Assembly: GCA_019417145.1 (NCBI GenBank)
Contig: DXVY01000036.1
Span: 1 to 11,468 of the forward strand
Length of the DNA: 11,468 bases
Direction: 5' to 3'
Origin: Clostridiales bacterium
Lineage (GTDB): Bacteria > Bacillota > Clostridia > Oscillospirales > Acutalibacteraceae
The position numbers and the translations under genes are program-made. Every line of letters starts with the position of its first letter. Positions within the stretch are counted from its first letter, which is position 1. Below are positions 1 to 11,468 of the stretch, in pieces. The notes beneath the pieces are model-generated. The model did not search any database. It saw nothing but the letters and a program-made list of their open reading frames with translations, and had not been told where the DNA came from.

Positions 1-3000
1 CTTCCAGATCCGCGCTGTTCTCCAGGTTCGCCGCCTCTTCAATCTGTTCCTCTACCGCTTCTGCGGCTGCAAGCTTTTCCAGACGCGCATACTCGGCCTC
101 GGCCGCCGTCAGCTCGTCGGCGTTGATCACCTGAACCCGATTCTCTTCGGCTACCTCATTGTAGGCCGCCCGAGCCGCATCGATAGCCTCCTTGCAGGCG
201 CTGCTCAGCTCTACTGGCTGCGGTATGGCCGCTATGGCATTGATGGCCGCCAATACGGTTTCATCCATGTCCTCAAAGCTGTATTCTCCGCTCTTGGCAG
301 TGAGAACACCCTTTTCAAAGGTTTGCGAGGCAGAATCGCCGCTTATGATGGTATTGCCGGTGGGCGCGCCGGTTATGGCAAACCGTGCAGCCGCGTCGTT
401 TCCAAGGCTCATAAAGGCGTCATACGCGGCGCCGTTAATGTAATAGCAGCCTTCCGGCGTGCCGTCGTCAGCAGGTATGGCATCCAAAATGTCCTTACTG
501 CCGGCCATAATGGCGCGGCCCTGGGGACCTTCAAAGTCCTGATAATAGATGCCGTCCACCTGTTTTTGCACATCCTGGTAAGAGGGCATACCCAGTGTCA
601 TGCCATATTCGCTATCCCAATCGTACTTGGCATAGGTATACTGGAAGGCCATCTTGGCGCCGCCTTCCAGGCCCACGCCGGGACCGTAGCCCCAACCGTC
701 GATGCCTGTGGGCGACGAATCATTGATGGTGTACTCCTTGGCGTCCACCCGGCGCATGCCGCCGCCAAAGGTCATCTGCACAATCTTGCCGCCGTACTCA
801 AAGGCCTCGCCGATGGGCGTGCCGGCATCGCCGCCGCCCATGGCCATAGCGCCCACACGGGTAAAGGCCATGCCCACAAAGGGGCTGTATACCGCGTTCC
901 AGCGACGCAGTCCAGCCGTGGGTGTACCGTCTTCATTCCGGCCGTGGTTCCAGGGGCTGCCGATACTGTCGTTGTACGCTCCCTCGCTTGTGTCCTCCAG
1001 CTGCACCGCCAGCGCCCTGTTGGCGCCGTCGTTCATATACTGCATATCCACCGTGGCGCCGGGCTTTACGCCCATGCCGTAGGCGTCGTAGATCAGCTTT
1101 TCACGGACGGCCTTGACCATGGCGTCCCGAGTGGCCTGATACCCCTCCGGATCGTCCTTGAGCGCTGCCAGCCAGGGCGCGTTGTCAAAGGTAACGTCAA
1201 CCTTGATCTTTCCCTCGCCATCTGGATTATCCACCACCATCTGGGGCCAGTTATCATTGATGGTAAAGGTGAAATCATCCTGAATCTGCTGGAGGGTCGC
1301 CTCAGCGTCAATCAGACGCTGAATATTGTGCACCTGCGCCTGTTCCTCCTCGGACAGCGCGTCATAGGCCGCACGGACCTGCGTCAGTTCCTCCAGGCTC
1401 TTGTAAGTAATGGTATCGCTGATACCGGCAATCAGCTTCACAACATCTGTAATACGCGCAGGCACATAAGCCGCGTCCAGATCCAGATAGAAACCGGTGT
1501 CAAAGAAGGTGATATGGTCGGTATGACGATTGCTGTTGTTGAGCTTCAGGACCAACTGCTGCGCGCCTGCGGGAATATCAATGGCAAAGGCCGCATAGCC
1601 CTTATCGCCGCTCTCGTTGCCCTCGGCGCCGTCCTTCAGGAAAGGTCCTGCCTCGCCGGCCTTGATGCCGTCGATGTAAAACTCAACCCTGTTATCGTTA
1701 TTGTAATAACCATTTTGCAGGCCCTCGGTGCACATACCCACAATACCGCTGAAGGTTACGGCCTGATTGGGCACCTTCAGGTTAATGGTCATATAGCTGT
1801 TCTCCGGAGGCTCGCAGCCGAAGGAAGCGGTCTTGCCGGCAAAGGTATAGGTTTGATCGCAGTAGGCCTGGCCGACCTTAAAATCATTATAGACGCCGCC
1901 GGCCGCGTCCAAGGCCACGGGATCGAGGGTCTCAGCCGCAACATAGTTGCGGGGATCCGCCTCCTGGAGATTTTCGGCGGTAAGGGCCGCCACCTCCTCG
2001 GCGGAGAGAACCTTATCAAACACCCGGAAATCGGACATTTTTCCGTTCATACCGGGATCTACATCGCCCCACTCCTTAGTTGCCGCGCCGATAGCGGCCA
2101 TGCCGTCGTCGGGGAGATTGGCAAAGGACAATACGGATTTGGCCACCTGGTCCCAGCCGTCGCCGCTGGCGGTATAGGGGATGGCCTCGCCGTTAAAGTA
2201 CATGACGATTTCGCCGTCGGCCGAAAGGGTAAAGGTGAGCTGCACCCAGTTCTGCAGGGGCATCTTATACGGGCTGGCCGCATTGTACGCCTTATCCGCG
2301 ACCACATTGTCCACATAGAACTGCAAATTGTTTCCGCGGCCGCTAAAGAACGGCTGCCAGCGCATGAGATAGGCGCCTTCCCCAAATTCGCCGTTCATCT
2401 GATGACGGGAACCGGCCTGGAAGTAGGTGGCATAATCGCCCACATACTTATTTGCGTTGACCATCATGGAAACGGTAATATTCTCATGCTTGAGCGCGGC
2501 GATAGGAATACTGACGCGGTCAGAACGGCCGCCCTCGCTGAGAAATTCCACCATGCCGTCCTCGATTTTAATCTTATCGGTGGTAGTGGGGTTGTTATCG
2601 TAATTGACAATGGTGCCGTCGTAATCGCCGGCCACGTCCTCCACCTTGCCGTCGGCGGTCAGGCCGTCGAAGGTGTAGTGCAGCACGGAATCAGGAACTT
2701 GGGCGGTCACAGGCTCCTCTGCAGGAAGCGCCGCCTTGTTCTCCTGATACAGCTCCATAACCTCTGCATCCGACAGGACCCGATCGTACATCCGGAAATC
2801 GGCCATAACGCCCTTGAGGGTGGGATCGTTCATCCAAATGGCAGGACCGCCTACACTGGCCGCGCCGGAGGTGATCTCGTGCAGGCCACGGCCCTCGTAG
2901 GACTCGCCCTCCTGTCCGCCCACAATCAGGGTCGTATGCACCTTTTCGCCGTTGAGATAGAGGGCGGCGCTGTCGCCTTCCTTGGTAAAGGTAATTTCGG

Positions 3001-5512
3001 TCCATTCATGAATGTTCAAGGGTTTGTCGGCCATGAGACGGACGGTTTTCTGTTCATCCGTATCCCCCTTGCCGACGATAGTGAGGGCCAAACCGAGCCG
3101 TCCGCCCTCATCGCTTTGAGCCGAGATTTGAACCGCATTGTCGCCGTTCGGACCGGCTTCAAAGAGAGTGGTCCATTGCCGGATCTCACTGGCGCGGACC
3201 ATCATGCTGATGGTCTTGGCCTGAGATACGGTTTCAACCGGCATCTGCAGGTAACCGCCGCTAAGCTGGAGCAGACCGGCGGAAGTGCCGGCGGAACCCG
3301 TCAGCATACCGTTATAGCCGTTGCCCGAAACGTCCTTGGCGCCGGTTACAAAATCATAATGCACCAGGGTGCCGTCGCTGGCCATAGGTATGGTATGCAG
3401 GGGCACCAGGGTAATATCCTGTAAGATCAGAGTTCCCAAATCCTGCTGCAGCGTAAAGGTAATGTCCACCTTTCCTGCCTGGCCGATGTTGGCCACACCC
3501 ACCGGCGCTTCATAGTACATCTTGTGCTTGCGGGCATTGGTATCGCCGGAATTAGGCGCGTAACAATCCACAGGCTCTCCCACATTGGCGCCGTTGACTG
3601 CAACCTGCACCTTGCCGGAGGCCTGATAAGCCTTGTACTTGAAGTAGACCAGATAGTCGCCGGCCTCTTCCACATCGGCGGTGATCGAAACCTTGTCGCC
3701 CGCCTTGCCGTCATTAAACCAAACGGGATAGATGGTCCCCCAGGGCGAGGTTTCGTCCTTGGCGCCGGCGGCGGGCTTGACGATACTGCCGCTCGTAACG
3801 CCCTTCAAGCCGGAGGTAATAGCGATGGTCTGGGGATCGCCGTCTTCCACCTTCACCTGGATATTCTTATACCTGCCGGAGCCAGCCCAGGCGCGGAGGC
3901 CCACCTGACCGGAGGTTACCGCCTCGGGCGCTTGGTCGGTATAGGTGCCGACGGAAGAGCCGTTGACAAAAAACTCATAGAAGTTGGCCGTATACACAAC
4001 CTTCAGGTTTTCCCAGCCGGTGCCGGATGGCGTATAGGAGAAATCCTGCAGCTTGGTAAAGTTGTTGCGATGCCGACCCAGACGGATCACGGGCTGTTCG
4101 TTCTCCTTGGTAAAGCCAACCTCATAGCCGTCGAAGGCGTCGGCGCCGTAGTTCAAGTTGGCGCCCTTGATGACAAAGCCCACAGGCCCGGATCCGGTAA
4201 CCTGAACATCGGCTGAAAACTCGCCGGACGTAGAGGCCGTATCGGCAATCATCAATTTAGGGCCGTCGTTCTGCTCGGGCAGCTCCACATACCATTCGCC
4301 CTCGTCGGTAGCCCCGAAATCATACTGAATATCGCCGATGGGCTCAAAGCTGGCAACGTTCTTAACAGCCTCGTCCGCGCTAATATGCACGCTGGGAGCG
4401 GAAATGGGTTGGAGCTCAATATAGTCCAGCCGGATGTTCTTATCGCAGTTGGCCAAGCCGACCACCTCAACCGTGTCGGTGCCGGCCTGCAGCTCCACCT
4501 CAACCGTGAGCTTGGGAATCTGCCGGTTAAAGGCGTTGCGCTGGATGGTCTCATTGACAGCCGGATTGATGGAAGGACCGACCACGCGACTGTCTTCCTG
4601 CGCATAGTCCTTGGCCAGAGCCACCGTTGCGCTGTTTTCATGGGCCTTAAAGGCCGCCGATACCCGATACAGCCCGGTAGCCGGAATGCCATCCAGCTCA
4701 AAAATCGCATAATTGCCGGCGGCTTTCAGCCCAATATTCACGTAAGCGCCGCCGCTGGGGCTACCGGATACGCCGTCGGTAGCAGTCTTGCCAATCTCAA
4801 TCTCATCCGTGCTCTTACTGATCTTGCCGGTATCCTTCAAATCCTCCACCTCATAGCGGATGGGATCGTTGGAGAGCACATAACCGCTCAGGGCCAGCTC
4901 GGAAATCTGGAAAAAGCCCTCGTTTCCCCGATAGGCGGTGAAGGCGATTTTATAATAGGTATAGGCCCGTCCGCTATCTACCGCATAATCCTCCGGATAA
5001 TAGGTGCAATAATCCTCCGGAAATTTCTCGTTGAGCGTGGCGTTTTCCACCGTGTCGATAGGCGTGTACTCCGCACCATCGACCGACCCGTACAGGGTCC
5101 ACGATTTGGGATCGCGCCCCTCCGAATCATTGCCTCCCGCCAGGGTATAGTAGGTGAGGGCAACGGGCGTGGTCATTTTCCAGCTGACCTCAACCGTATC
5201 CTCGTTGCCCTGCTTGTTGATGCCCAGCTTGGTGGTGGTGTCTCCATCGAACAGCTTGCGCGGCCCTTCGGCGCCGGTATTGTCCGGCGGCTGGACATTA
5301 TGACTGCCGCTTTTGGCGCTGACCGAATCCAGATCCACATACTGGACCAACTGATTGGACGCAGTAGGACGGTCGGCATCCAGCGTGTCCTTGACGCCAG
5401 CCGCAGCCGAAGCGGTCAAAGCGCCCAATGGCAGCATGGACGCCAGCATACTGGCAGCCAACAGCGACGCCAGTATACGCCTGGATGATCTTGCCTGTGA
5501 TTTTTTGCGCAT
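1..5512 (-). CDS. Giant secreted multidomain carbohydrate-binding / cell-surface protein. The N-terminal 1,837 codons are present; the 3' end continues past window position 1.
   Basis: Reverse-complement reading from the ATG at 5512..5510 translates without stops to position 1. It starts MRKKSQARSSRRILASLLAASMLASMLPLGALTASAAAG, a basic n-region plus hydrophobic core typical of a signal peptide. An RBS AGGGGGGA sits 7 nt upstream (plus 5519..5526). Codon usage is GC3-rich, while the other five frames show Arg/Pro/Gly/His-rich nonsense typical of off-frame high-GC sequence. The ORF track did not list it because no stop codon lies inside the window. Domain calls rest on recognisable motifs only. 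Confidence 0.88.
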   Translation of the reverse strand, partial: MRKKSQARSSRRILASLLAASMLASMLPLGALTASAAAGVKDTLDADRPTASNQLVQYVDLDSVSAKSGSHNVQPPDNTGAEGPRKLFDGDTTTKLGINKQGNEDTVEVSWKMTTPVALTYYTLAGGNDSEGRDPKSWTLYGSVDGAEYTPIDTVENATLNEKFPEDYCTYYPEDYAVDSGRAYTYYKIAFTAYRGNEGFFQISELALSGYVLSNDPIRYEVEDLKDTGKISKSTDEIEIGKTATDGVSGSPSGGAYVNIGLKAAGNYAIFELDGIPATGLYRVSAAFKAHENSATVALAKDYAQEDSRVVGPSINPAVNETIQRNAFNRQIPKLTVEVELQAGTDTVEVVGLANCDKNIRLDYIELQPISAPSVHISADEAVKNVASFEPIGDIQYDFGATDEGEWYVELPEQNDGPKLMIADTASTSGEFSADVQVTGSGPVGFVIKGANLNYGADAFDGYEVGFTKENEQPVIRLGRHRNNFTKLQDFSYTPSGTGWENLKVVYTANFYEFFVNGSSVGTYTDQAPEAVTSGQVGLRAWAGSGRYKNIQVKVEDGDPQTIAITSGLKGVTSGSIVKPAAGAKDETSPWGTIYPVWFNDGKAGDKVSITADVEEAGDYLVYFKYKAYQASGKVQVAVNGANVGEPVDCYAPNSGDTNARKHKMYYEAPVGVANIGQAGKVDITFTLQQDLGTLILQDITLVPLHTIPMASDGTLVHYDFVTGAKDVSGNGYNGMLTGSAGTSAGLLQLSGGYLQMPVETVSQAKTISMMVRASEIRQWTTLFEAGPNGDNAVQISAQSDEGGRLGLALTIVGKGDTDEQKTVRLMADKPLNIHEWTEITFTKEGDSAALYLNGEKVHTTLIVGGQEGESYEGRGLHEITSGAASVGGPAIWMNDPTLKGVMADFRMYDRVLSDAEVMELYQENKAALPAEEPVTAQVPDSVLHYTFDGLTADGKVEDVAGDYDGTIVNYDNNPTTTDKIKIEDGMVEFLSEGGRSDRVSIPIAALKHENITVSMMVNANKYVGDYATYFQAGSRHQMNGEFGEGAYLMRWQPFFSGRGNNLQFYVDNVVADKAYNAASPYKMPLQNWVQLTFTLSADGEIVMYFNGEAIPYTASGDGWDQVAKSVLSFANLPDDGMAAIGAATKEWGDVDPGMNGKMSDFRVFDKVLSAEEVAALTAENLQEADPRNYVAAETLDPVALDAAGGVYNDFKVGQAYCDQTYTFAGKTASFGCEPPENSYMTINLKVPNQAVTFSGIVGMCTEGLQNGYYNNDNRVEFYIDGIKAGEAGPFLKDGAEGNESGDKGYAAFAIDIPAGAQQLVLKLNNSNRHTDHITFFDTGFYLDLDAAYVPARITDVVKLIAGISDTITYKSLEELTQVRAAYDALSEEEQAQVHNIQRLIDAEATLQQIQDDFTFTINDNWPQMVVDNPDGEGKIKVDVTFDNAPWLAALKDDPEGYQATRDAMVKAVREKLIYDAYGMGVKPGATVDMQYMNDGANRALAVQLEDTSEGAYNDSIGSPWNHGRNEDGTPTAGLRRWNAVYSPFVGMAFTRVGAMAMGGGDAGTPIGEAFEYGGKIVQMTFGGGMRRVDAKEYTINDSSPTGIDGWGYGPGVGLEGGAKMAFQYTYAKYDWDSEYGMTLGMPSYQDVQKQVDGIYYQDFEGPQGRAIMAGSKDILDAIPADDGTPEGCYYINGAAYDAFMSLGNDAAARFAITGAPTGNTIISGDSASQTFEKGVLTAKSGEYSFEDMDETVLAAINAIAAIPQPVELSSACKEAIDAARAAYNEVAEENRVQVINADELTAAEAEYARLEKLAAAEAVEEQIEEAANLENSADLE
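250..1275 (-). other. Region of about 340 aa with at least three LGFP-like repeats, of unknown function. It is flanked by helical FIVAR-like linker segments at about 1..250 and 1290..1470.
   Basis: Repeat-like units are GTPIGEAFEYGGKIVQMTFGGG, LGMPSYQDVQKQVDGIYYQDFEGPQGRAIMAGS and TGAPTGNTIISGDSASQTFEKGVLTAKSG. They fit the LGFP consensus (LGxP...G....QxFExGxi). Flanking Ala/Glu-rich helices such as LEELTQVRAAYDALSEEEQAQVHNIQRLIDAEATLQQIQ and ACKEAIDAARAAYNEVAEENRVQVINADELTAAEAEYARLEKL resemble FIVAR-type linker domains. Confidence 0.35.
1475..1895 (-). other. NPCBM/NEW2-like carbohydrate-binding module, approximate.
   Basis: YNDFKVGQAYCDQTYTFAGKTASFGCEPPENSYMTINLKVPNQAVTFSGIVGMCTEG...RVEFYIDGIKAGE...AAFAIDIPAGAQQLVLKLNNSNRHTDHITFFDTGFYLDLD. 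It matches the NPCBM pattern: 'known-class' input, a tabulated variable-combination block, then a terminal His/Asp block before 'a.a.L'. Confidence 0.45.
1990..2690 (-). other. Laminin-G_3 (concanavalin-A-like lectin) domain, copy 2, approximate.
   Basis: LHYTFDGLTADGKVEDVAGDYDGTIVNYDNN...ITVSMMVNANKY...WVQLTFTLSADGEIVMYFNGEAI...GKMSDFRVFDKVLSAEEVAALT. It has the same architecture and terminal motif as copy 1. Confidence 0.6.
2750..3370 (-). other. Laminin-G_3 (concanavalin-A-like lectin) domain, copy 1, approximate.
   Basis: LVHYDFVTGAKDVSGNGYNGMLTGSAG...LQMPVE...TISMMVRASEIRQWTTLFEAG...EWTEITFTKEGDSAALYLNGEKV...GVMADFRMYDRVLSDAEVMELY. The signature is a terminal 'F(R)xYxRxLSxxEV' motif. 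Confidence 0.6.
3840..4300 (-). other. DUF1080-like (3-keto-disaccharide-hydrolase / LamG-fold lectin) domain, approximate.
   Basis: GEWYVELPEQNDGPKLMIAD...GFVIKGANLN...YEVGF...ENLKVVYTANFYEFFVNGSSVGTYTD...SGQVGLRAWAGSGRYKNIQVKVE. The C-terminal G.R.WAG.G.YKNI.VK motif is characteristic of the DUF1080 jelly-roll family. Confidence 0.5.
4880..5290 (-). other. F5/8 type C (discoidin / CBM32-like) domain, approximate boundaries.
   Basis: Segment GAEGPRKLFDGDTTTKLGINKQG...SWTLYGSVDGAEYTPID...FFQISELALSGYVL. The motifs are KLFDGDTTTKW-like, then TLYGS.DG..YT, then a hydrophobic C-terminal strand, as in discoidin-fold carbohydrate-binding modules. Confidence 0.5.
5399..5512 (-). other. Signal peptide of the giant protein, ~38 aa (approximate cleavage after ASAAAG).
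   Basis: MRKKSQARSSRR is a positively charged n-region. ILASLLAASMLASMLPLGALT is a hydrophobic core. ASAAAG is an Ala-rich c-region. Confidence 0.6.
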
Positions 5513-5593
5513 AAATAGTCCCCCCTGTGTATCATTTTGTGAATACAATATTATTTTAACAAGTAAAAATGCAAAAAACAATAATCAATCTGC

Positions 5594-5621
5594 ATAATAT
5601 CATACACACGGCTATTGGCAA
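5594..5621 (-). promoter_or_regulatory. Putative sigma-70-type promoter of the giant protein gene.
   Basis: On the minus strand, TTGCCA (plus 5616..5621) is followed by a 16-nt spacer and then TATTAT (plus 5594..5599), preceded by TGa as an extended -10-like element. This sits in a locally AT-rich block. The predicted 5' UTR is about 75 nt, ending at the GGGGGG RBS. Confidence 0.3.
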
Positions 5622-5724
5622 ATTGCACAGTATTTCCGCATGAATTATTGTCGCACTTTGCAAATATGTGCAAAAGCTTTCTTTTCGCAATACGTATTGG
5701 GGTGCAGTATCCCGTCTGAAGCCC

Positions 5725-5760
5725 GTTCTCCCCGCCGGAGAACAGGCGCCTATGTTGTTT
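5725..5760 (+). terminator. Orphan terminator-like hairpin on the plus strand, with no plus-strand gene upstream.
   Basis: GTTCTCC (5725..5731), a CCGCC loop and GGAGAAC (5737..5743) form a 7-bp GC-rich stem. It is followed by aggcgccTATGTTGTTT, which is T-rich. A possible plus-strand -35/-10 (TTGCAC 5623..5628, 17 nt, TATTGT 5646..5651) lies about 100 nt upstream. Confidence 0.2.
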
Positions 5761-6028
5761 CTACCAAGTTTGACTTGCAAACGGCGAAAATGACCCGGAG
5801 GTCTGCCCGTCCTTGGAAGCTTCAAAAGCGGCGTGGCCGCCGATCCCATACCATTCCGTCTTAAGTTTTCCCATCCACCCGGGCCACAACCACAATCCGC
5901 TTATCGGCGACCCGGGCTGGCGAAGGCGCTAATGATTACCCGTGGGGTCACAGCGTTCCCCGACCGGATCCAGCCCAAAACCTAGACAGCGCAAGCCCAA
6001 AAGGATCATTGTTCCACATCTGCGCAAA

Positions 6029-6060
6029 GGCAGCCGTTTCCCCTTACAGAAACGGCTGCC
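6029..6060 (-). terminator. Rho-independent terminator of the nfeD-flotillin operon.
   Basis: A perfect 12-bp inverted repeat, GGCAGCCGTTTC (6029..6040) and GAAACGGCTGCC (6049..6060), surrounds an 8-nt loop. It lies 17 nt downstream of the flotillin stop (TAA, plus 6078..6080). On the minus strand it is followed by TTTGCGC. Confidence 0.6.
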
Positions 6061-6077
6061 TTGCAATTACATCCGGA

Positions 6078-7481
6078 TTATTCCGCCGTGGGCTGCGCCG
6101 ACTCGTCCGGCTTTGCCTCCTTGCCCAAAAACGCGGGGATCTGCATACCCGCCATCTTGAAGGTCTCGTTGAGCGGCGGGATAGATTTCATCAAGCTGGC
6201 CAGGAAATTAGAGGTGGTGGACGAACCGTCCTTACCTCCCATGGAATCCCAGACCGTAACCTTGTCAATATTCAGGTTCTTGACGGCCTCCACCTGGATC
6301 TTGACCAGCTCTTCGATTTTATCCACCAGCATAAGTTGGATGGCCGCGTTTGCGTCTCCACCGGCGGCGGCCACAATTTTCTTGAAGCCTTCGGCCTGCT
6401 TGGCCAGAATCTCCTGGATACCGCGGGCCTGGGCCTCCATGGTGGCGTAGGTGGCATCTGCCTCGCCCCTGGCCTTCCGGCGGATCTGCTCGGCCAGCGC
6501 CTCGGCCTCCAATTCCTTTTTCTCCTTGTCCACCCGGGCCTTGACGATAATATCGGCCTGCTGGGTGGCCAGTTCCCGCTCCGCACGGGCCTTTTCCGCT
6601 ACCTGTTGCGCCGCGTAGGCCTCCTCCAAAGCCTTGGCCTCGGCGATCTTTTCGGCGGTCACGGCGCGCCGCTGGGCCTCGGCTTCCTTTTCGCGGCGGG
6701 TAGCGTCCGACTGGGCAATGGCTGCCTTGGATTCGTTCTCACCGGCGATGGCCGTTGCATTGGCCTGGGCCACGCTGATACGCTGGTCTTTTACCGCTTG
6801 CGCCTCGCCCACCGAGCCGTCGCGGTTCTTTTCCGCAACCGTCTTCTTGGCGTCGTTGATAGCTTTTGCGGCCGCCTCTTTGCCCAGCGCCTCGATATAC
6901 CCCGACTCATCGGTGATATCGGTGACATTGACGTTGATCAGCCGCAGACCGATTTTCTTAAGCTCGGTCTCCACGTTGTGGGAGACAGCCTCCAGGAACT
7001 TATCCCGGTCGGTGTTAATCTCCTCGATGTCCATGGTGGCGATGACCAGGCGCAACTGACCGAAAATAATATCCTTGGCCAGCTCCTGTATCTCGCTGAG
7101 TTTAAGTCCCAGCAACCGCTCGGCCGCGTTCTGCATGATACCCGGCTCTACCGAGATGCCCACCGTAAACCGCGAGGGTACGTCAACCCGGATGTTTTGA
7201 TGAGACAGGGCATTGGCCAGATCCACGTTGATGGAAATGGGGGTCAGGTCCAGGTACTCATAGGCCTGAATCACCGGCCAGATAAAGGCGGCGCCGCCGT
7301 GGATACAGCGGGCCGATCGGGCCGTGCCGTCCTTGTTGGTGCCCACCTTACCATAAATGACCATCACCTTGTCGGACGGACAGCGGCGATAGCGAGCCAG
7401 TACGACCAGCAGCATGGAGAAAACCAATACCGCTATGACGACCAGCAGCACAATGACGCTTGTTGGCATGGAACCTTGCAT
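6078..7481 (-). CDS. floT: Flotillin / SPFH (band-7) family membrane-microdomain protein, FloT-like, 467 aa.
   Basis: The ORF in the track is 6078..7538. Its product has an N-terminal TM helix (SVIVLLVVIAVLVFSMLLVVL). An SPFH core follows (VMVIYGKVG...FIWPVIQAYEYLDLTPISINVD...IRVDVPSRFTVGI...ELAKDIIFGQLRLVIATMDIEEINTDRDKF). Then comes a long Ala/Glu/Lys-rich coiled coil (AEAQRRAVTAEKIAEAKALEEAYAAQQVAEKARAERE...) typical of flotillins. I place the start at the ATG at 7481..7479 (MQGSMPTS...) because a GGAGGAGG RBS lies 7 nt upstream. The in-frame TTG at 7538 has no RBS. Confidence 0.85.
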   Translation of the reverse strand: MQGSMPTSVIVLLVVIAVLVFSMLLVVLARYRRCPSDKVMVIYGKVGTNKDGTARSARCIHGGAAFIWPVIQAYEYLDLTPISINVDLANALSHQNIRVDVPSRFTVGISVEPGIMQNAAERLLGLKLSEIQELAKDIIFGQLRLVIATMDIEEINTDRDKFLEAVSHNVETELKKIGLRLINVNVTDITDESGYIEALGKEAAAKAINDAKKTVAEKNRDGSVGEAQAVKDQRISVAQANATAIAGENESKAAIAQSDATRREKEAEAQRRAVTAEKIAEAKALEEAYAAQQVAEKARAERELATQQADIIVKARVDKEKKELEAEALAEQIRRKARGEADATYATMEAQARGIQEILAKQAEGFKKIVAAAGGDANAAIQLMLVDKIEELVKIQVEAVKNLNIDKVTVWDSMGGKDGSSTTSNFLASLMKSIPPLNETFKMAGMQIPAFLGKEAKPDESAQPTAE

Positions 7482-7636
7482 ACATATTCCTCCTCCGTTT
7501 AATTTCAACCCCTTGCCGCGCATAGCGGTAAAGGCCAAGAGTCCGGCTGGTATCCGCCGGGTTCCCGCAATAAAATCCTGACCGGGCAGACAAAATCCAG
7601 GGCGCTCGCCTTGGGAATCATTTGCCGGCGCAGGGT

Positions 7637-8350
7637 CTACCGGCCTTTGTCTCCTAGAAGCAATGGCCGGACAACCAAGGTGTTTTCCGAGGCCAGGCCC
7701 ACCACCTGGATCTGTACACCCGCTTTAATAGGCTCCTCCCAGTCGGTAACGGCGTCCAGCTCCACCAGCTGCTCCTGCACCAGTACGGTCACCTTGCCGG
7801 TGCCCGTGCGTCGGGCAGGCACGGTGATATAGCAGCTGCCGGTATGGGCCACGGCATTGCGCAGAGAGAGGGTTCCGTTCTCCTGCAGCCGCAACGCCCA
7901 TTTAATGATAAAGGCCACCAGCAGCAGGGCCAGGAACCCGCCGGCCGCGCCCAGGGCCACCGCGCCTCCGGCCGGCAGTCCCAGATCGATCATGGCCAGC
8001 GCCAGCCAACCACCCACTGCAAAAAAGGCCACCAGTCCACGGACGGTGAGAATGCGTACACCCGCCGCATGGTGGGCCCCGTCGTGCCCTACCCCGGCAT
8101 CCTGTCCCGCCTCGGCTTCCTGACCGAGCTGAACGTCCACATCCCCCTCCGCCTGTCCATCGGCCGCCTCCGCCGTATCCGATAGGCCGGAGCTGTCTTC
8201 CAGCCCGCCATGGTCGGCCTCATGTCCGCCGGCGCTGAAAAGCAGCAAAATGGTCTGCAAAAGCAGGATGACGGTGGCCGGGATAGCAAAGCAGGCCAAA
8301 ACCTGCTGCAGGCCGGTCAGCGCCTGCCACCAATCGGTAAACCACTGCAT
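7637..8350 (-). CDS. nfeD: NfeD-family membrane protein (YuaF/NfeD2-like partner of flotillin), 237 aa.
   Basis: The N-terminus has hydrophobic helices (VLACFAIPATVILLLQTILLLFSA; LVAFFAVGGWLALAMIDLGL; AVALGAAGGFLALLLVAFIIKW). The C-terminal beta-rich segment GTGKVTVLVQEQLVELDAVTDWEEPIKAGVQIQVVGLASENTLVVRP is typical of the NfeD OB-fold. It sits immediately upstream of the flotillin gene, the conserved nfeD-flo arrangement. An RBS AGGAGG lies 8 nt upstream of ATG 8350. Confidence 0.75.
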   Translation of the reverse strand: MQWFTDWWQALTGLQQVLACFAIPATVILLLQTILLLFSAGGHEADHGGLEDSSGLSDTAEAADGQAEGDVDVQLGQEAEAGQDAGVGHDGAHHAAGVRILTVRGLVAFFAVGGWLALAMIDLGLPAGGAVALGAAGGFLALLLVAFIIKWALRLQENGTLSLRNAVAHTGSCYITVPARRTGTGKVTVLVQEQLVELDAVTDWEEPIKAGVQIQVVGLASENTLVVRPLLLGDKGR

Positions 8351-8379
8351 GGTATTCGCCTCCTTCTATTTAACTCCAA

Positions 8380-8408
8380 AGTATATTCTCTGCGCCCCGC
8401 GTCACAAT
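8380..8408 (-). promoter_or_regulatory. Possible sigma-70 promoter for nfeD-floT, in the 72-nt gap after the DUF1836 gene.
   Basis: On the minus strand, TTGTGA (plus 8403..8408) is followed by a 17-nt spacer and then TATACT (plus 8380..8385), about 22 nt upstream of the nfeD RBS. No terminator is evident between the DUF1836 gene and nfeD, so read-through is also possible. Confidence 0.25.
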
Positions 8409-8422
8409 GTTATAGGCGCGGT

Positions 8423-8983
8423 TCAGATCAGTTCGTGCAGCAACTCTTCGGCAAGATTCTTAATCCGCCCCGCCTGACAGGCCAACGCCATGACGGTCAG
8501 CGCCCGTTCCAGCCGCAGGCGCGAATCAGCCGTCGGGCCCTTGTAATCCGCCGTCTGCTCCTGCACCAGCCTACGGGTTCGCTCCAGGGAAAAGCCCTCC
8601 TCCGGGGCCATACGGCGCACCACCTCGCACAGATAGTCATACATCTGGCTTTCCCGGATGATATCGTCCGCCCGATCTTCCACCTCGCCGTTGATATAAG
8701 ACATGAGCCGGGCTATCTGCTCGATCTGCATACAATCCCGCAGCGCGCTGATAATAAGTATACGGGCCAGTTGGATTTCATTATACTTCTTGTGCACAGG
8801 CTTGGATACCCAGCCCCGCTTTACCCAGTTCTGGATAGTAGAGCCTTCTAAGCCGGTTACCGCCGACACCTGGGATAGGCTTAATCCCCCGGTGGCCGCC
8901 AGCAGCGGCTCGATCATGGAGAAGGCCGAACGGTTGCCACGAGTATCCGGCAGATTGGTGCCCGGTATATTTGTCTGCTGCAT
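8423..8983 (-). CDS. DUF1836-family protein with a helix-turn-helix-like segment; putative DNA-binding regulator. 186 aa.
   Basis: The product contains LSLSQVSAVTGLEGSTIQNWVKRGWVSKPVHKKYNEIQLARILIISALRDCMQIEQIARLMSYINGEVEDRADDIIRE. This matches the conserved core of Firmicutes DUF1836 proteins (…TG.s.STIQNW.K…, …YINGxxxDxxDDxI…). An RBS AGGAGG lies 8 nt upstream of ATG 8983. Confidence 0.7.
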   Translation of the reverse strand: MQQTNIPGTNLPDTRGNRSAFSMIEPLLAATGGLSLSQVSAVTGLEGSTIQNWVKRGWVSKPVHKKYNEIQLARILIISALRDCMQIEQIARLMSYINGEVEDRADDIIRESQMYDYLCEVVRRMAPEEGFSLERTRRLVQEQTADYKGPTADSRLRLERALTVMALACQAGRIKNLAEELLHELI

Positions 8984-9032
8984 CCTGTCTGCCTCCTTAC
9001 ATGTTCCTCATATCCCCTTTCAAGTTTATTTG

Positions 9033-9079
9033 ATTATATCACAGGTTCATATGAACCCCAAATCTCGATTTGGTCCCAT
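9033..9079 (-). promoter_or_regulatory. Promoter of the DUF1836 gene, with an extended -10 and an operator-like palindrome inside the spacer.
   Basis: On the minus strand: TTGGGG, 17 nt, then TGaTATAAT (TATAAT = plus 9033..9038). The 14-bp perfect palindrome GGTTCATATGAACC (plus 9044..9057) occupies the -35/-10 spacer, abutting the -10. It is directly abutted by a second perfect palindrome, CCAAATC-tc-GATTTGG (plus 9058..9073). Confidence 0.4.
9044..9073. promoter_or_regulatory. Tandem perfect palindromes; candidate operator sites.
   Basis: GGTTCATATGAACC (9044..9057) and CCAAATCTCGATTTGG (9058..9073) are contiguous. They overlap the DUF1836 promoter core in the divergent intergenic region. 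Confidence 0.4.
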
Positions 9080-9224
9080 CCCGTTTCCCACAGGTGCCCG
9101 AGAACAACCGCCCCCTATAATCTCTGTTTTTCGGCTATTTTCTTGTGTTTGCTCCTGTTTTCTTTGTCGCGGAATGGGGTTTGCCCGGTTGGCGGAAAAA
9201 ACCTGAGGAAATTTATGTTTGCGC

Positions 9225-9253
9225 TTCTCTTTTACCCTAATCTTTGGTATAAT
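9225..9253 (+). promoter_or_regulatory. Extended -10 promoter for the hydrolase / murF-like operon.
   Basis: tTGgTATAAT is present (TG at 9245..9246, TATAAT at 9248..9253) with a weak -35 (ttctct) 17 nt upstream. Two further perfect TATAAT hexamers exist at 9116..9121 and 9280..9285. The exact start site is uncertain. Confidence 0.35.
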
Positions 9254-9305
9254 ATATTGGTTAAATTATGCTGTGATATTATAATAGACACGGGGAGGGA
9301 ATCCC

Positions 9306-10079
9306 TTGGAGAATAAGCTGCGTTGCACTATAAACGGCCTATCCATACAATATACCGACGAGGGAGAGGGACAGACCATCCTGCTGCTCCACGGCTGGGG
9401 TTCGTCCATAGACGCCTGGGCCATGCTCCGCCGGGAATTTGCCGGCGGGTTTCGCCTTGTGGCGTTGGATTTTCCGGGATTTGGGGGAAGCGATATGCCG
9501 CCCGAGCCCTGGGCGGTGGAGGATTACGCCCGCTTCACCCTGGCCTTCATGGAAAAACTGGGCCTGCAGGACCCCATCTTGGTAGGGCATTCCTTCGGCG
9601 GGCGGGTCATCATGAAGTTGGCCGGCACCGGCCGGGTCCATCCGCCCAAGATTATTCTTATCGACGCCGCCGGCATCCAGCCCAAAAAGACCCTGCGGCA
9701 AAAAGCCCGCCAGCGGAGCTTCAAGATAACCAAATGGTTTCTCACTCTCCCCGGTCTGCGCAGCCACACGGACGCCCTTTTAGACAGGGCCCGCCGGCAC
9801 TACGGCTCGGCCGATTACAACAACGCGCCGGAGATTCTGCGCAAGACTCTGGTAAAGGTGGTCAACGAGGATCTTTCTCACCATCTGCCCCACATAGAGG
9901 TCCCCACCCTTTTGATCTACGGGGAAAATGACACCGCGACGCCAGTGGCCGACGCCAAAAAAATTGAGGGGCTGATCCCCGACGCGGGGCTCTGTATTAT
10001 CCAGGGGGCGGGGCATTTTTCCTTTGTAGAGCGTCCCTATCAGGTTCATCGGATTCTGCACAGTTTCTTGGGAGGCTGA
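9306..10079 (+). CDS. Alpha/beta-fold hydrolase (esterase / lipase / BioH-MenH-like superfamily), 257 aa, TTG start.
   Basis: LLLHGWGSS is an oxyanion-hole HGxG-type motif. GHSFGG (nt 9584..9601) is the Gly-X-Ser-X-Gly nucleophile elbow. ENDTATP may carry the acid residue. GAGHFSFVE, near the C-terminus, carries the catalytic His. An RBS GGGGAGGG lies 7 nt upstream of TTG 9306. Stop TGA is at 10077..10079. Confidence 0.85.
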   Translation: MENKLRCTINGLSIQYTDEGEGQTILLLHGWGSSIDAWAMLRREFAGGFRLVALDFPGFGGSDMPPEPWAVEDYARFTLAFMEKLGLQDPILVGHSFGGRVIMKLAGTGRVHPPKIILIDAAGIQPKKTLRQKARQRSFKITKWFLTLPGLRSHTDALLDRARRHYGSADYNNAPEILRKTLVKVVNEDLSHHLPHIEVPTLLIYGENDTATPVADAKKIEGLIPDAGLCIIQGAGHFSFVERPYQVHRILHSFLGG

Positions 10080-10082
10080 GAC

Positions 10083-11468
10083 CATGTATATCTTTTATAC
10101 CCTCGGGGGCGCGGCCGCGGCCGTAACCGCCCTTTTTGCCCTTACCCGCCAGATTCATATGTTCCAGCAGAATTCCTATTATCCCAGCCGTTATGCGGGC
10201 TGGCTGAAAACCGCAGGATATCTGCGGGCGGTCGGCGCAGGCCTGCTGACAGCCGGCGTCCTGCTGCTGCTCTGGCTTACGGGTCCCCTCCCCTTTAGCG
10301 GCGGCTGCCTGCTCATGGGGTTAATTCGGATTCCCGCGGCCATCTCCGGACAGCGACGGGCCATCAAGCGGCTTGTCTTCACGCCGCGGGTCCGGCGTTT
10401 GTATGTCACCGCCGCGCTTCTGCTGACGGCTCTGCTGCTTCTCTCGGCCCTTTTGCCGACGACCGCGGGACGTTTTGTCTTAACGGCGGTGCTCCTGTTG
10501 GGCTGGGGGACTCCTGTCCTGCTTTTGACAGCATACGCCGTCAATCAGCCTATTGAGAAATCCATTGCGCGCTGGTACGTCAACGATGCCAAGCGCATTT
10601 TACGTGGCTGTCGGGATCTTAAGGTTATCGGTATCACCGGCAGCTACGGCAAAACCAGCACCAAATATATCTTGGGCCGTCTACTGAGCGAACGATACAA
10701 TACGGTCATAACCCCGGAGAGCTATAATACGCCCATGGGCGTGGTCCGCACGGTCCGGGAGAAACTCCGTCCAAACACCCAGATTTTTGTGGCTGAAATG
10801 GGCGCGAAAAACGTGGGCGATATCAGGGAAATCTGTGAGATCGCCGACCCGGACATGGGTGTCATCACCTCCATAGGTCCCCAGCACCTGGAGACCTTCG
10901 GCTCTATTGAGAATGTGGCGGCCACCAAGTTCGAGCTGGCGGATCATGTGCTACAAAATCACGGAACGGTCTTCCTGAACACGGATAACCCCTATATCGC
11001 AGACAGGGCGAAAACCATGCCCGCTAGTTTCCAAAAAACCTATGGCATCCGGGCGGATAAATCCGCCCCCGCACCCGATCTTTACGCCGAAAATCTCTCC
11101 TATGGGCGAAACGGTTCGTCCTTCGATATTGTGGGAGACGGCCGGCGGATTTCGGTTTCCACCCGACTGCTGGGGCTGCATAACGTGCTCAATATCCTGG
11201 CGGCGGCATCGGTTGGCTTCCATTTGGGCCTGACCGACAGCGAGGTAAAATATGCCGTCTCCCAGTTAAAGCCGGTGGCCCACCGGCTGGAGCTCAAGCC
11301 CTTCATCGGCGGCGCCGTGCTTATTGACGACGCCTATAACGCCAATCCAGAGGGTTGTCTGGAAGCCGTACGCGTGCTGGGTAATTTTGACGGCATGAAA
11401 AAGATCATCGTTACCCCCGGTTTGGTGGAGCTAGGCGATCAGGAATACGACTGCAATTACCAATTAGG
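10083..11468 (+). CDS. murF: MurF-family Mur ligase (UDP-MurNAc-tripeptide--D-Ala-D-Ala ligase-like) with an N-terminal ~150-aa polytopic membrane domain in place of the canonical N-terminal domain. 3' end beyond the window.
   Basis: The open frame starts at ATG 10083, 3 nt after the hydrolase stop, with RBS GGGAGG 8 nt upstream, and continues to the window end. Residues 1..155 contain four hydrophobic helices: MYIFYTLGGAAAAVTALFAL; LRAVGAGLLTAGVLLLLWLTGPLPF; LYVTAALLLTALLLLSALLP; FVLTAVLLLGWGTPVLLLTAYAV. The rest aligns motif-by-motif with MurF. GITGSYGKTSTK (nt 10632..10664) is the P-loop. Others are NTPMGV, FVAEMGAKNVGDIREICEIADPDMGVITSIGPQHLETFGSIENVAATKFEL, LGLHNVLNILAAASV, LIDDAYNANPEG and TPGLVELGDQEYDCNYQLG. 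The last of these corresponds to E. coli GDMAELGAESEACHVQVG. The gene symbol is given as the family, not a proven orthologue. Confidence 0.8.

Follow-up and report, generated by a model that had tools for sequence, protein, structure and literature searches.

A membrane-integral MurF-type ligase encoded with an alpha/beta hydrolase and a D-Ala-D-Ala ligase: a widespread and apparently uncharacterised MurF paralogue module

Based on comparative sequence analysis and predicted structures, the right-hand end of an 11,468-nucleotide stretch from a Clostridiales bacterium (GenBank assembly GCA_019417145.1, contig DXVY01000036.1, positions 1 to 11,468 of the forward strand; this whole stretch is called the window below) is interpreted as the first two members of an operon whose three genes move together. 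These genes encode an alpha/beta-fold serine hydrolase and a MurF-type ligase in which a membrane domain takes the place of the UDP-binding N-domain, and the third gene, for a DdlA-type D-Ala-D-Ala ligase (Ddl), would lie just past the window edge. The ligase family is apparently a widespread and uncharacterised MurF paralogue module. As the best overall explanation, to which a probability of about 0.5 is assigned, it is proposed that the three proteins cooperate in adding a dipeptide to a peptidoglycan-type precursor at the cytoplasmic face of the membrane. An earlier note on this DNA, made from the sequence alone, had described the hydrolase and the ligase as a pair; the Ddl gene past the window edge lay beyond its view and extends the pair to a three-gene module.

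The MurF-type ligase and its membrane domain

In Mur ligases, the UDP-MurNAc-peptide is held by the N-domain, ATP by the central domain, and the amino acid or dipeptide to be added by the C-domain (PMC10214165). The ligase open reading frame (ORF) of the window opens at ATG 10084 on the forward strand and is still open after 461 codons at the window end; a full-length homologue of 532 aa (P0001, 99% identical) carries PF02875, which places about 71 codons beyond the window. The first 176 residues, encoded at 10084-10611 (+), constitute the membrane domain with five transmembrane segments. The MurF-type central domain, which binds ATP, follows at 10612-11468 (+) together with the beginning of the C-terminal domain, which is cut by the window end. 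Pfam assigns residues 184-377 to Mur_ligase_M (E 2e-40) and residues 400-444 to the beginning of Mur_ligase_C, and the P-loop GITGSYGKTSTK is encoded at 10630-10665 (+). MurF is the closest family by hidden Markov model (HMM), by sequence and by fold, the best NCBIfam model being murF TIGR01143, of which only positions 66/72-403 are aligned. All of the catalytic motifs checked are kept relative to canonical MurF, including the Lys and Thr of the P-loop, the Mg/ATP ligands, E238, H268, K282 at the position of the carbamylated Lys, R401, HRLE and DDAYNANP, and because these catalytic residues are conserved, the ligase is presumably active. The MurF-like character of the central and C-terminal domains, as claimed in the earlier note, is supported by these Pfam and NCBIfam matches, and every motif that it quoted is present. 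Its proposal that the UDP-binding N-domain is replaced by a membrane domain also holds: PF01225, the Mur-ligase N-domain, is not found in the ligase by Pfam even at E <=1, NCBIfam gives no such match, and helices are modelled in this region. Canonical MurF (EC 6.3.2.10) is thus similar to the ligase in the central and C-terminal domains and, in Bacilli, in its pairing with ddl. In contrast to the UDP-binding N-domain of canonical MurF, the ligase possesses a 176-residue, five-helix membrane domain, and its gene has a fixed alpha/beta hydrolase gene upstream.

Five hydrophobic segments were located by Kyte-Doolittle analysis at residues 2-21, 46-66, 68-88, 104-124 and 130-152, and AlphaFold models them as helices with a predicted local distance difference test score (pLDDT) of 89 for the whole protein, and with a pLDDT of 94 and a predicted template modelling score of 0.86 for residues 1-182 alone. 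In the model, a short amphipathic helix occupies residues 34-43, and helix five continues into the catalytic domain. Lys and Arg residues are concentrated in loops 22-45 and 85-106 and beyond residue 155, and this distribution of positive charge fits a predicted N-out, C-in topology, in which the ATP-using catalytic domain would be cytoplasmic. Conservation of loops and helices was assessed across alignments of 37 and 19 homologues. The cytoplasmic loop at residues 22-45 bears the motif TRQxxMxQxNSYYxSRYxxW with invariant Q28, S31, Y32 and R36, the cytoplasmic loop at residues 89-105 bears IKxLVFTxRVKR with invariant K95, T100, R102 and R105, and P156 and D168, ahead of the P-loop, are likewise invariant. 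The helices are poorly conserved while the key positions of the two loops do not vary, and mean pairwise identity is 28% in the membrane domain versus 50% in the catalytic part. Because of the two invariant cytoplasmic loops, the membrane domain is, as far as conservation can tell, more than a bare anchor. In the earlier note this region had been described as a four-helix anchor; its hydrophobic helices are confirmed, their number is five, and the idea of a bare anchor does not accord with the invariant loops. MAFFT aligns S31-R36 of the first loop with (S/T)xD(S/T)R, a motif of the canonical N-domain, possibly by chance.

A search with the membrane domain only returned 298 matches among 1.84 billion cluster representatives. 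None of the 150 listed matches is longer than 560 aa, and the full-length ones measure 483-560 aa, mostly more than 500; since no longer proteins occur among the matches listed, the membrane domain is seen there only fused to a MurF-type ligase. No recognisable relative of this N-terminal domain was found. The best 120 homologues of the complete ligase are 515-567 aa long and lack PF01225, and in nearly all of them the alignment begins within the first ~20 residues and covers 95-100% of the query. An alternative downstream start with a canonical N-domain, which the earlier note had considered as a way in which its reading could fail, was not found, the homologues aligning from about residue 1. 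Family members P0447-P0449, P0464 and P0475 have only 472-504 aa yet cover 95-100% of the query, and their membrane domain may be shorter.

The hydrolase and the conserved gene order

The hydrolase gene, the first of the module, is located at 9306-10079 (+) and encodes an alpha/beta-fold serine hydrolase of 257 aa that matches Abhydrolase_1 (E 4.3e-30; 105.6 bits, cut-off 25.8). It starts with TTG, ahead of which lies GGGGAGGG, and stops with TGA at 10077-10079. The ligase ATG follows after 4 nt, a spacer that had been given as 3 nt, and the Shine-Dalgarno sequence GGGAGG for the ligase (10070-10075, +) lies within the final hydrolase codons, 8 nt before the ATG, in agreement with the earlier claim that the ribosome-binding site overlaps the hydrolase 3' end. 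The catalytic triad, consisting of S96 (in GHSFGG), D209 and H237, and the oxyanion-hole residues HGW 29-31 show a conservation of 95% or more among 77 homologues, which also share the family-specific conserved residues R100, K140, G167-S168-x-D170-Y171 and D189. The hydrolase is cytoplasmic. No NCBIfam equivalog reaches its cut-off with this protein, the top one being the EstV lipase model (124 vs 300 bits), and its relatives in the PDB are generic esterases, haloperoxidases and epoxide hydrolases only.

In a scan of one genome per species, at least 589 species were found to carry the ligase, and 80 species loci were kept; the linkage counts refer to those loci that have enough flanking DNA. 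The hydrolase gene is directly 5' of the ligase gene in 75 of 76 loci, with an estimated median gap of about 18 nt between hydrolase stop and ligase start and often an overlap (4 nt in L004), and a gene for a DdlA-type D-Ala-D-Ala ligase is directly 3' of the ligase gene in 71 of 77. One Chitinophagales locus has neither neighbour. When metagenome contigs were baited with the hydrolase, the membrane-type ligase was found directly downstream in 63 of 66 and Ddl next in 52 of 54. The pairing with the hydrolase, for which a test of co-occurrence had been suggested, is therefore reciprocal and reaches across phyla, and the contrary picture of an ordinary, sole MurF that lacks a hydrolase linkage does not match this near-universal arrangement. 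Moreover, the pairwise identities of hydrolase, ligase and Ddl co-vary (r 0.87-0.91), and two relatives of 52-59% identity show the order hydrolase, ligase, D-Ala-D-Ala ligase and then a cation-efflux protein. Among the rare exceptions on metagenome contigs, L153 has the hydrolase gene with no ligase gene within 4 kb downstream; at L113, about 430 nt of extra sequence lie between the hydrolase and ligase genes.

The partner Ddl and its neighbours

The partner Ddl is of a distinct subtype and has 390-404 aa (for example, at 11683-12891 in L001 and at 11576-12769 in L004). It scores 298-341 bits with NF002528 (cut-off 262) and 254-288 bits with TIGR01205 (cut-off 245.65), and it fails the VanA, VanG and VanC models (140-247 bits vs cut-offs of 495-775); the closest structure is that of S. 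aureus Ddl (224 bits). The Lys-Tyr of the omega loop is kept, in the form ILSYxDKY versus canonical FYDYxxKY, and the loop is followed by an insert of 7-20 aa with an invariant Gly-Met. After the PG motif the sequence reads PGSLAF-Y-LWE, which is 4 residues shorter than in S. aureus Ddl, and the protein ends in a conserved basic C-terminal tail.

Additional peptidase genes adjoin the trio in three lineages. A gene for an M15 (VanX/DdpX-family) dipeptidase is found 3' of Ddl in Paenibacillus and in Pseudalkalibacillus, followed in the latter by a PBP2B-like gene, and an M19 dipeptidase gene is found 3' of Ddl in Clostridium sp. JN-1; these dipeptidase and PBP2B-like neighbours lie at 10795-11499 in L092, at 13056-13778 and 14682-16757 in L049, and at 13181-14158 in L095. 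A gene for a cation-diffusion-facilitator (CDF) transporter was observed 3' of ddl in 26 Oscillospirales loci (for example, L001 12969-14135, L004 12788-13972 and L080 7927-8895), and one was observed directly 3' of the ligase gene in one Muribaculaceae locus.

Distribution and relationship to canonical MurF

Carriers of the module comprise Oscillospiraceae, Lachnospiraceae, Clostridium, Caloramator, haloalkaliphilic Bacillaceae (Pseudalkalibacillus, Evansella cellulosilytica, Salipaludibacillus, Alteribacillus, Salibacterium, Gracilibacillus and others), Paenibacillus and Muribaculaceae, and further Thermoanaerobacterium, Caldanaerobacter, Clostridium sp. JN-1, Tissierellia, and metagenome-assembled genomes labelled Synergistetes and Poribacteria. 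Stable, family-specific sites amid housekeeping genes (murI-argS-ruvX, pth-mfd-spoVT and ribosomal protein genes) are occupied by the trio in Oscillospiraceae, where the CDF transporter follows it, and in Lachnospiraceae, where it lies between pth-mfd and spoVT. It is patchy among Bacilli, and in Evansella, Paenibacillus, Salipaludibacillus, Gracilibacillus and Clostridium sp. JN-1 it is intact in unrelated neighbourhoods. At L081, labelled Muribaculaceae, the ligase nests in the Lachnospiraceae clade and the locus has the pth-mfd ... spoVT synteny; this contig is probably mis-binned. No copy was found on the plasmids of PLSDB, all plasmid matches being canonical MurF of about 33% identity.

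When the catalytic region was used for a neighbour-joining tree, all 81 membrane-type ligases grouped in a single clade outside the canonical MurFs of Bacilli and Bacteroides, with the Bacteroidales membrane-type sequences in a subclade of their own. The P-loop reads TGSYGKT in the membrane-type family versus canonical TGSNGKTT. The ligase is a member of an old paralogue clade of MurF and is not canonical MurF. Canonical murF genes used for comparison occur in the order ddl-murF-(insertion sequence)-DEAD-box helicase in Anoxybacillus and ddl-murF-helicase-acpS in Aerococcus, and the canonical murF of Bacteroides finegoldii (432 aa) stands alone. The housekeeping murF of B. subtilis lies outside the dcw cluster. 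On a plasmid of Streptomyces sp. NBC_01205 (NZ_CP108559.1, 2644-7459; L090), a Thr/Ser dehydratase gene, ddl, murF and a second Mur-ligase-domain gene were observed, and this cluster is another accessory cassette for peptidoglycan precursors.

Because relatives of the carriers in Bacilli and Bacteroidota have canonical MurF, and because the trio is patchy and in unrelated contexts in Bacilli, it very probably represents a system additional to canonical MurF in these two groups. For the Oscillospiraceae, to which the window belongs, an additional system and a sole MurF are given equal odds. In Clostridia, the stable housekeeping positions and the murF-ddl pairing as in Bacilli favour a sole MurF, and the single clade with its own motifs and the constant hydrolase favour the role of a paralogue. 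The choice between housekeeping and accessory function, which the earlier note had left undecided, has accordingly advanced as far as a separate paralogue clade, while for the window's own clade the evidence still points both ways.

Proposed mechanism and alternative explanations

A possible mechanism was proposed for the module. The partner Ddl would make D-Ala-D-Ala or a close analogue. The ligase, with its active site at the cytoplasmic membrane face, would activate the terminal carboxylate of the acceptor with ATP and would then join the dipeptide to a MurNAc-tripeptide-type acceptor. The two invariant basic/aromatic loops could replace the lost N-domain by holding the diphosphate end of the acceptor. 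The hydrolase, which would be made in step with the ligase, may, as an obligate partner of the ligase, handle the same precursor through trimming, editing or substrate supply, since the tight coupling of the two genes and the invariant triad suggest a joint function on one substrate. Addition of a dipeptide to a muropeptide-type acceptor is considered probable. That the acceptor is lipid-linked rather than UDP-linked, which the earlier note had raised along with an editing role for the hydrolase, is a tentative suggestion and rather unlikely; the weakly conserved helices fit a UDP-linked and an undecaprenyl-diphosphate-linked acceptor alike.

Several observations weigh against this mechanism. 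With TIGR01143, the homologue P0001 and the ligases of Evansella (P0337) and Bacteroidales (L055) score 228.8, 243.4 and 237.1 bits, respectively, below the cut-off of 288.6, and canonical MurFs of Anoxybacillus and Bacteroides finegoldii score 468.2 and 386.1 bits over the full model. The motifs for the acceptor and the incoming substrate are altered: TPxSYNTPMGVVRT is found versus canonical GNxNNxIGxPxT, TPGxxELG versus canonical LGDMxELG, and an acidic L-x-E-N-D...L-P-D-N-Y C-terminus versus the basic K-G-S-(R/H)-G of canonical MurF. The omega-loop changes, the insert, the deletion and the basic tail of the partner Ddl may indicate that its dipeptide is not D-Ala-D-Ala; added M15 and M19 dipeptidases fit a model with a different dipeptide better. 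Furthermore, several Muribaculaceae loci and one Oscillospiraceae locus have no adjacent Ddl gene, the weakly conserved helices would suit a plain tether just as well, and no paper on a membrane-anchored MurF or on a hydrolase-ligase-Ddl operon was found in the literature.

As a first alternative, the ligase might be an ordinary housekeeping MurF that is tethered near MraY, serves as the sole MurF in Clostridia and joins soluble UDP-MurNAc-tripeptide with D-Ala-D-Ala, with the hydrolase as a loosely related or unrelated neighbour. The ligase is indeed annotated as MurF by pipelines, which name it 'UDP-N-acetylmuramoyl-tripeptide--D-alanyl-D-alanine ligase', 'Mur ligase family protein' or 'Mur ligase', and the complete set of catalytic motifs checked, the poor conservation of the membrane helices, the pairing of housekeeping murF with ddl in Bacilli and the stable sites of the trio among housekeeping genes in Oscillospiraceae and Lachnospiraceae are all in line with such a role. 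In addition, neither a canonical MurF nor a canonical N-domain was found in 2.1 Mb of DNA flanking the loci, where a second Mur-ligase match proved to be MurC at L052 and cyanophycin synthetase at L086. However, the carriers among Bacillaceae, Paenibacillus and Bacteroidales have relatives with canonical MurF and show unrelated contexts, so that the membrane-type ligase is very probably an extra copy there, and the family stands apart as a clade whose substrate-site motifs differ from those of canonical MurF. A plain tether would also leave unexplained why the hydrolase linkage is reciprocal and nearly obligate and why the loops do not vary. This housekeeping role is possible but on the whole unlikely.

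A narrower form of the proposed mechanism assumes that the membrane domain recognises an undecaprenyl-diphosphate-linked precursor in place of UDP, that the stem peptide is completed or repaired at the level of lipid I/II by joining D-Ala-D-Ala, or a variant dipeptide made by the module's Ddl, to lipid-linked MurNAc-tripeptide, and that the hydrolase first trims a wrong or truncated terminus. This form is regarded as doubtful.

Another explanation, which appears improbable, is a van-like alternative terminus, in which Ddl would make D-Ala-D-X, the MurF paralogue would install it, and the hydrolase or a dipeptidase would remove the normal terminus, thereby evading a glycopeptide-type or other wall-targeting agent. 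Accessory MurF genes do occur beside Van ligases: murF2 accompanies vanHAX in Actinoplanes teichomyceticus (PMC4790382), murFI is part of the vanI cluster of Desulfitobacterium hafniense (PMC4229326), and murF-like genes are near vanHAX in many Actinobacteria (PMC8698665). Like the module described here, they place a MurF beside a D-Ala-D-X ligase, sometimes with a dipeptidase, in a self-contained cassette, and the ddl/murF/Mur-ligase cluster of the Streptomyces plasmid, the M15/M19 dipeptidases adjoining the trio in Paenibacillus, Pseudalkalibacillus and Clostridium sp. JN-1, and the departures of ligase and Ddl from the canonical incoming-substrate motifs point in the same direction. The van clusters, in contrast, encode Van-type ligases, VanX and VanRS, and the three papers make no mention of a membrane domain or a fixed hydrolase for the van-cluster MurF (PMC4790382, PMC4229326, PMC8698665). 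The Ddl of the module passes the cut-off of the D-Ala-D-Ala subfamily and stays far under the Van models, retains the omega-loop K-Y typical of dipeptide-forming Ddl, and is accompanied by no VanH, VanT or VanRS in any of the loci read. The dipeptidase, moreover, is absent at most loci, and the module occurs in Gram-negative Muribaculaceae, which are out of the reach of glycopeptides.

It was also considered that the trio builds or remodels a membrane-associated peptide, polymer or lipid head group other than peptidoglycan, by analogy with cyanophycin synthetase or PgsB; this is quite improbable. The set of enzymes matches that of cyanophycin metabolism, cyanophycin synthetase being a fusion of ATP-grasp and Mur-ligase parts, and the divergent acidic C-terminal motifs, the score under the murF cut-off and the N-terminal domain with no recognisable relative would be compatible with such a product. 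PgsB/CapB, a poly-gamma-glutamate synthase, resembles the ligase in being a Mur-ligase-fold enzyme anchored in the membrane. PgsB has a single N-terminal anchor helix and acts with PgsC and PgsA on a non-muropeptide polymer. The ligase, however, matches MurF at E 1e-67 versus 2e-7 for cyanophycin synthetase and gives no match to a PgsB/CapB model at E <=0.01, its partner is a bona fide Ddl-subfamily protein, and peptidoglycan neighbours (murI, PBP2B-like and D-Ala-D-Ala dipeptidase genes) occur occasionally. Finally, a gene-calling artefact, in which the true ligase start would be downstream and the hydrophobic N-terminus untranslated, is suggested just by the general risk of over-extended ORFs in DNA of 57% G+C and can be dismissed in practice, given the GGGAGG 8 nt upstream of the ATG, the conservation of the region at the protein level with invariant loop residues in hundreds of species, and the fact that a truncated protein would begin only a few residues ahead of the P-loop, leaving it devoid of an acceptor-binding domain.

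Comparison with MurT/GatD

A precedent for a Mur ligase that works on membrane-linked precursors with a partner is the MurT/GatD complex (lipid II isoglutaminyl synthase), in which a Mur ligase has no ordered UDP-binding N-domain (the N-terminal region is mobile and unseen in the crystal) and is encoded in an operon with a hydrolase, and which uses lipid II and lipid I, though not UDP-linked precursors, as substrates (PMC6085368). The trio is similar to MurT/GatD in the Mur ligase that lacks an ordered UDP-binding N-domain and in the operon with a hydrolase-type partner, MurT/GatD working at the membrane. MurT is a soluble protein with a Cys-rich insert and a DUF1727 C-domain, and it receives ammonia from its partner, a class I glutaminase. 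The ligase of the trio, in contrast, is integral to the membrane and is partnered by an alpha/beta hydrolase with a Ser-Asp-His triad. MurT HMMs score the ligase at 33-36 bits against a cut-off of 800.

Other genes of the window

A giant ORF of at least 1837 aa occupies 2-5512 on the reverse strand and extends past the left window end. Behind a signal peptide it carries two Laminin_G_3 domains, one F5/8 type C domain and one domain like 3-keto-disaccharide hydrolase, and the product is probably a secreted carbohydrate-binding or -degrading protein. The forward-strand ORFs 323-3424, 3524-4216 and 4385-5488 were rejected as genes, being antisense shadows of this ORF with no family matches. An SPFH/Band 7 protein (E 1e-25) is encoded at 6081-7538 (-), and the antisense ORF 6009-7502 (+) is spurious. 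The gene at 7640-8350 (-) encodes a 237-aa protein with no family assignment, its sole match being a weak one to Gly_rich_SFCGS (0.037).

At 8426-8983 (-), a DUF1836/MerR-type helix-turn-helix protein (Pfam DUF1836, 1.6e-14; MerR_1, 1.2e-06) is encoded divergently from the hydrolase gene. The same layout is found in L004-L006 (at 8468-9025 in L004, a relative at 52% identity), and no such divergent arrangement was seen at most of the other loci. This protein may regulate the hydrolase-ligase operon in the window's lineage, and its membership of the module is uncertain. The 322-nt spacer 5' of the hydrolase gene contains a weak sigma-70-like promoter candidate at 9231-9258 (+), composed of TTTACC, 16 nt and TATATT with 9 of 12 consensus matches. 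An Rfam scan of the window matched no family, and thus no riboswitch or T-box was found upstream of the operon.

Significance

The MurF and Ddl steps are textbook, drug-targeted reactions that are described as purely cytoplasmic. A large part of the gut Clostridia, and numerous Bacilli and Bacteroidales, encode a second kind of MurF, which is membrane-integral and co-encoded with a hydrolase and a Ddl of its own, and databases label this family plain MurF. If it were the sole MurF in Clostridia, the last cytoplasmic precursor step would be membrane-bound in bacteria that are among the most abundant of the human gut and would need an unrecognised hydrolase. If it were an extra system, it would constitute an uncharacterised pathway for precursor remodelling or repair, with a bearing on D-cycloserine, glycopeptides and the design of MurF inhibitors. 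Should the lipid-linked reading be true, no integral-membrane Mur ligase would precede this one, and the synthesis of peptidoglycan precursors would gain an editing step at the level of the membrane, one that gut Clostridia, Muribaculaceae and alkaliphilic Bacilli would widely share.

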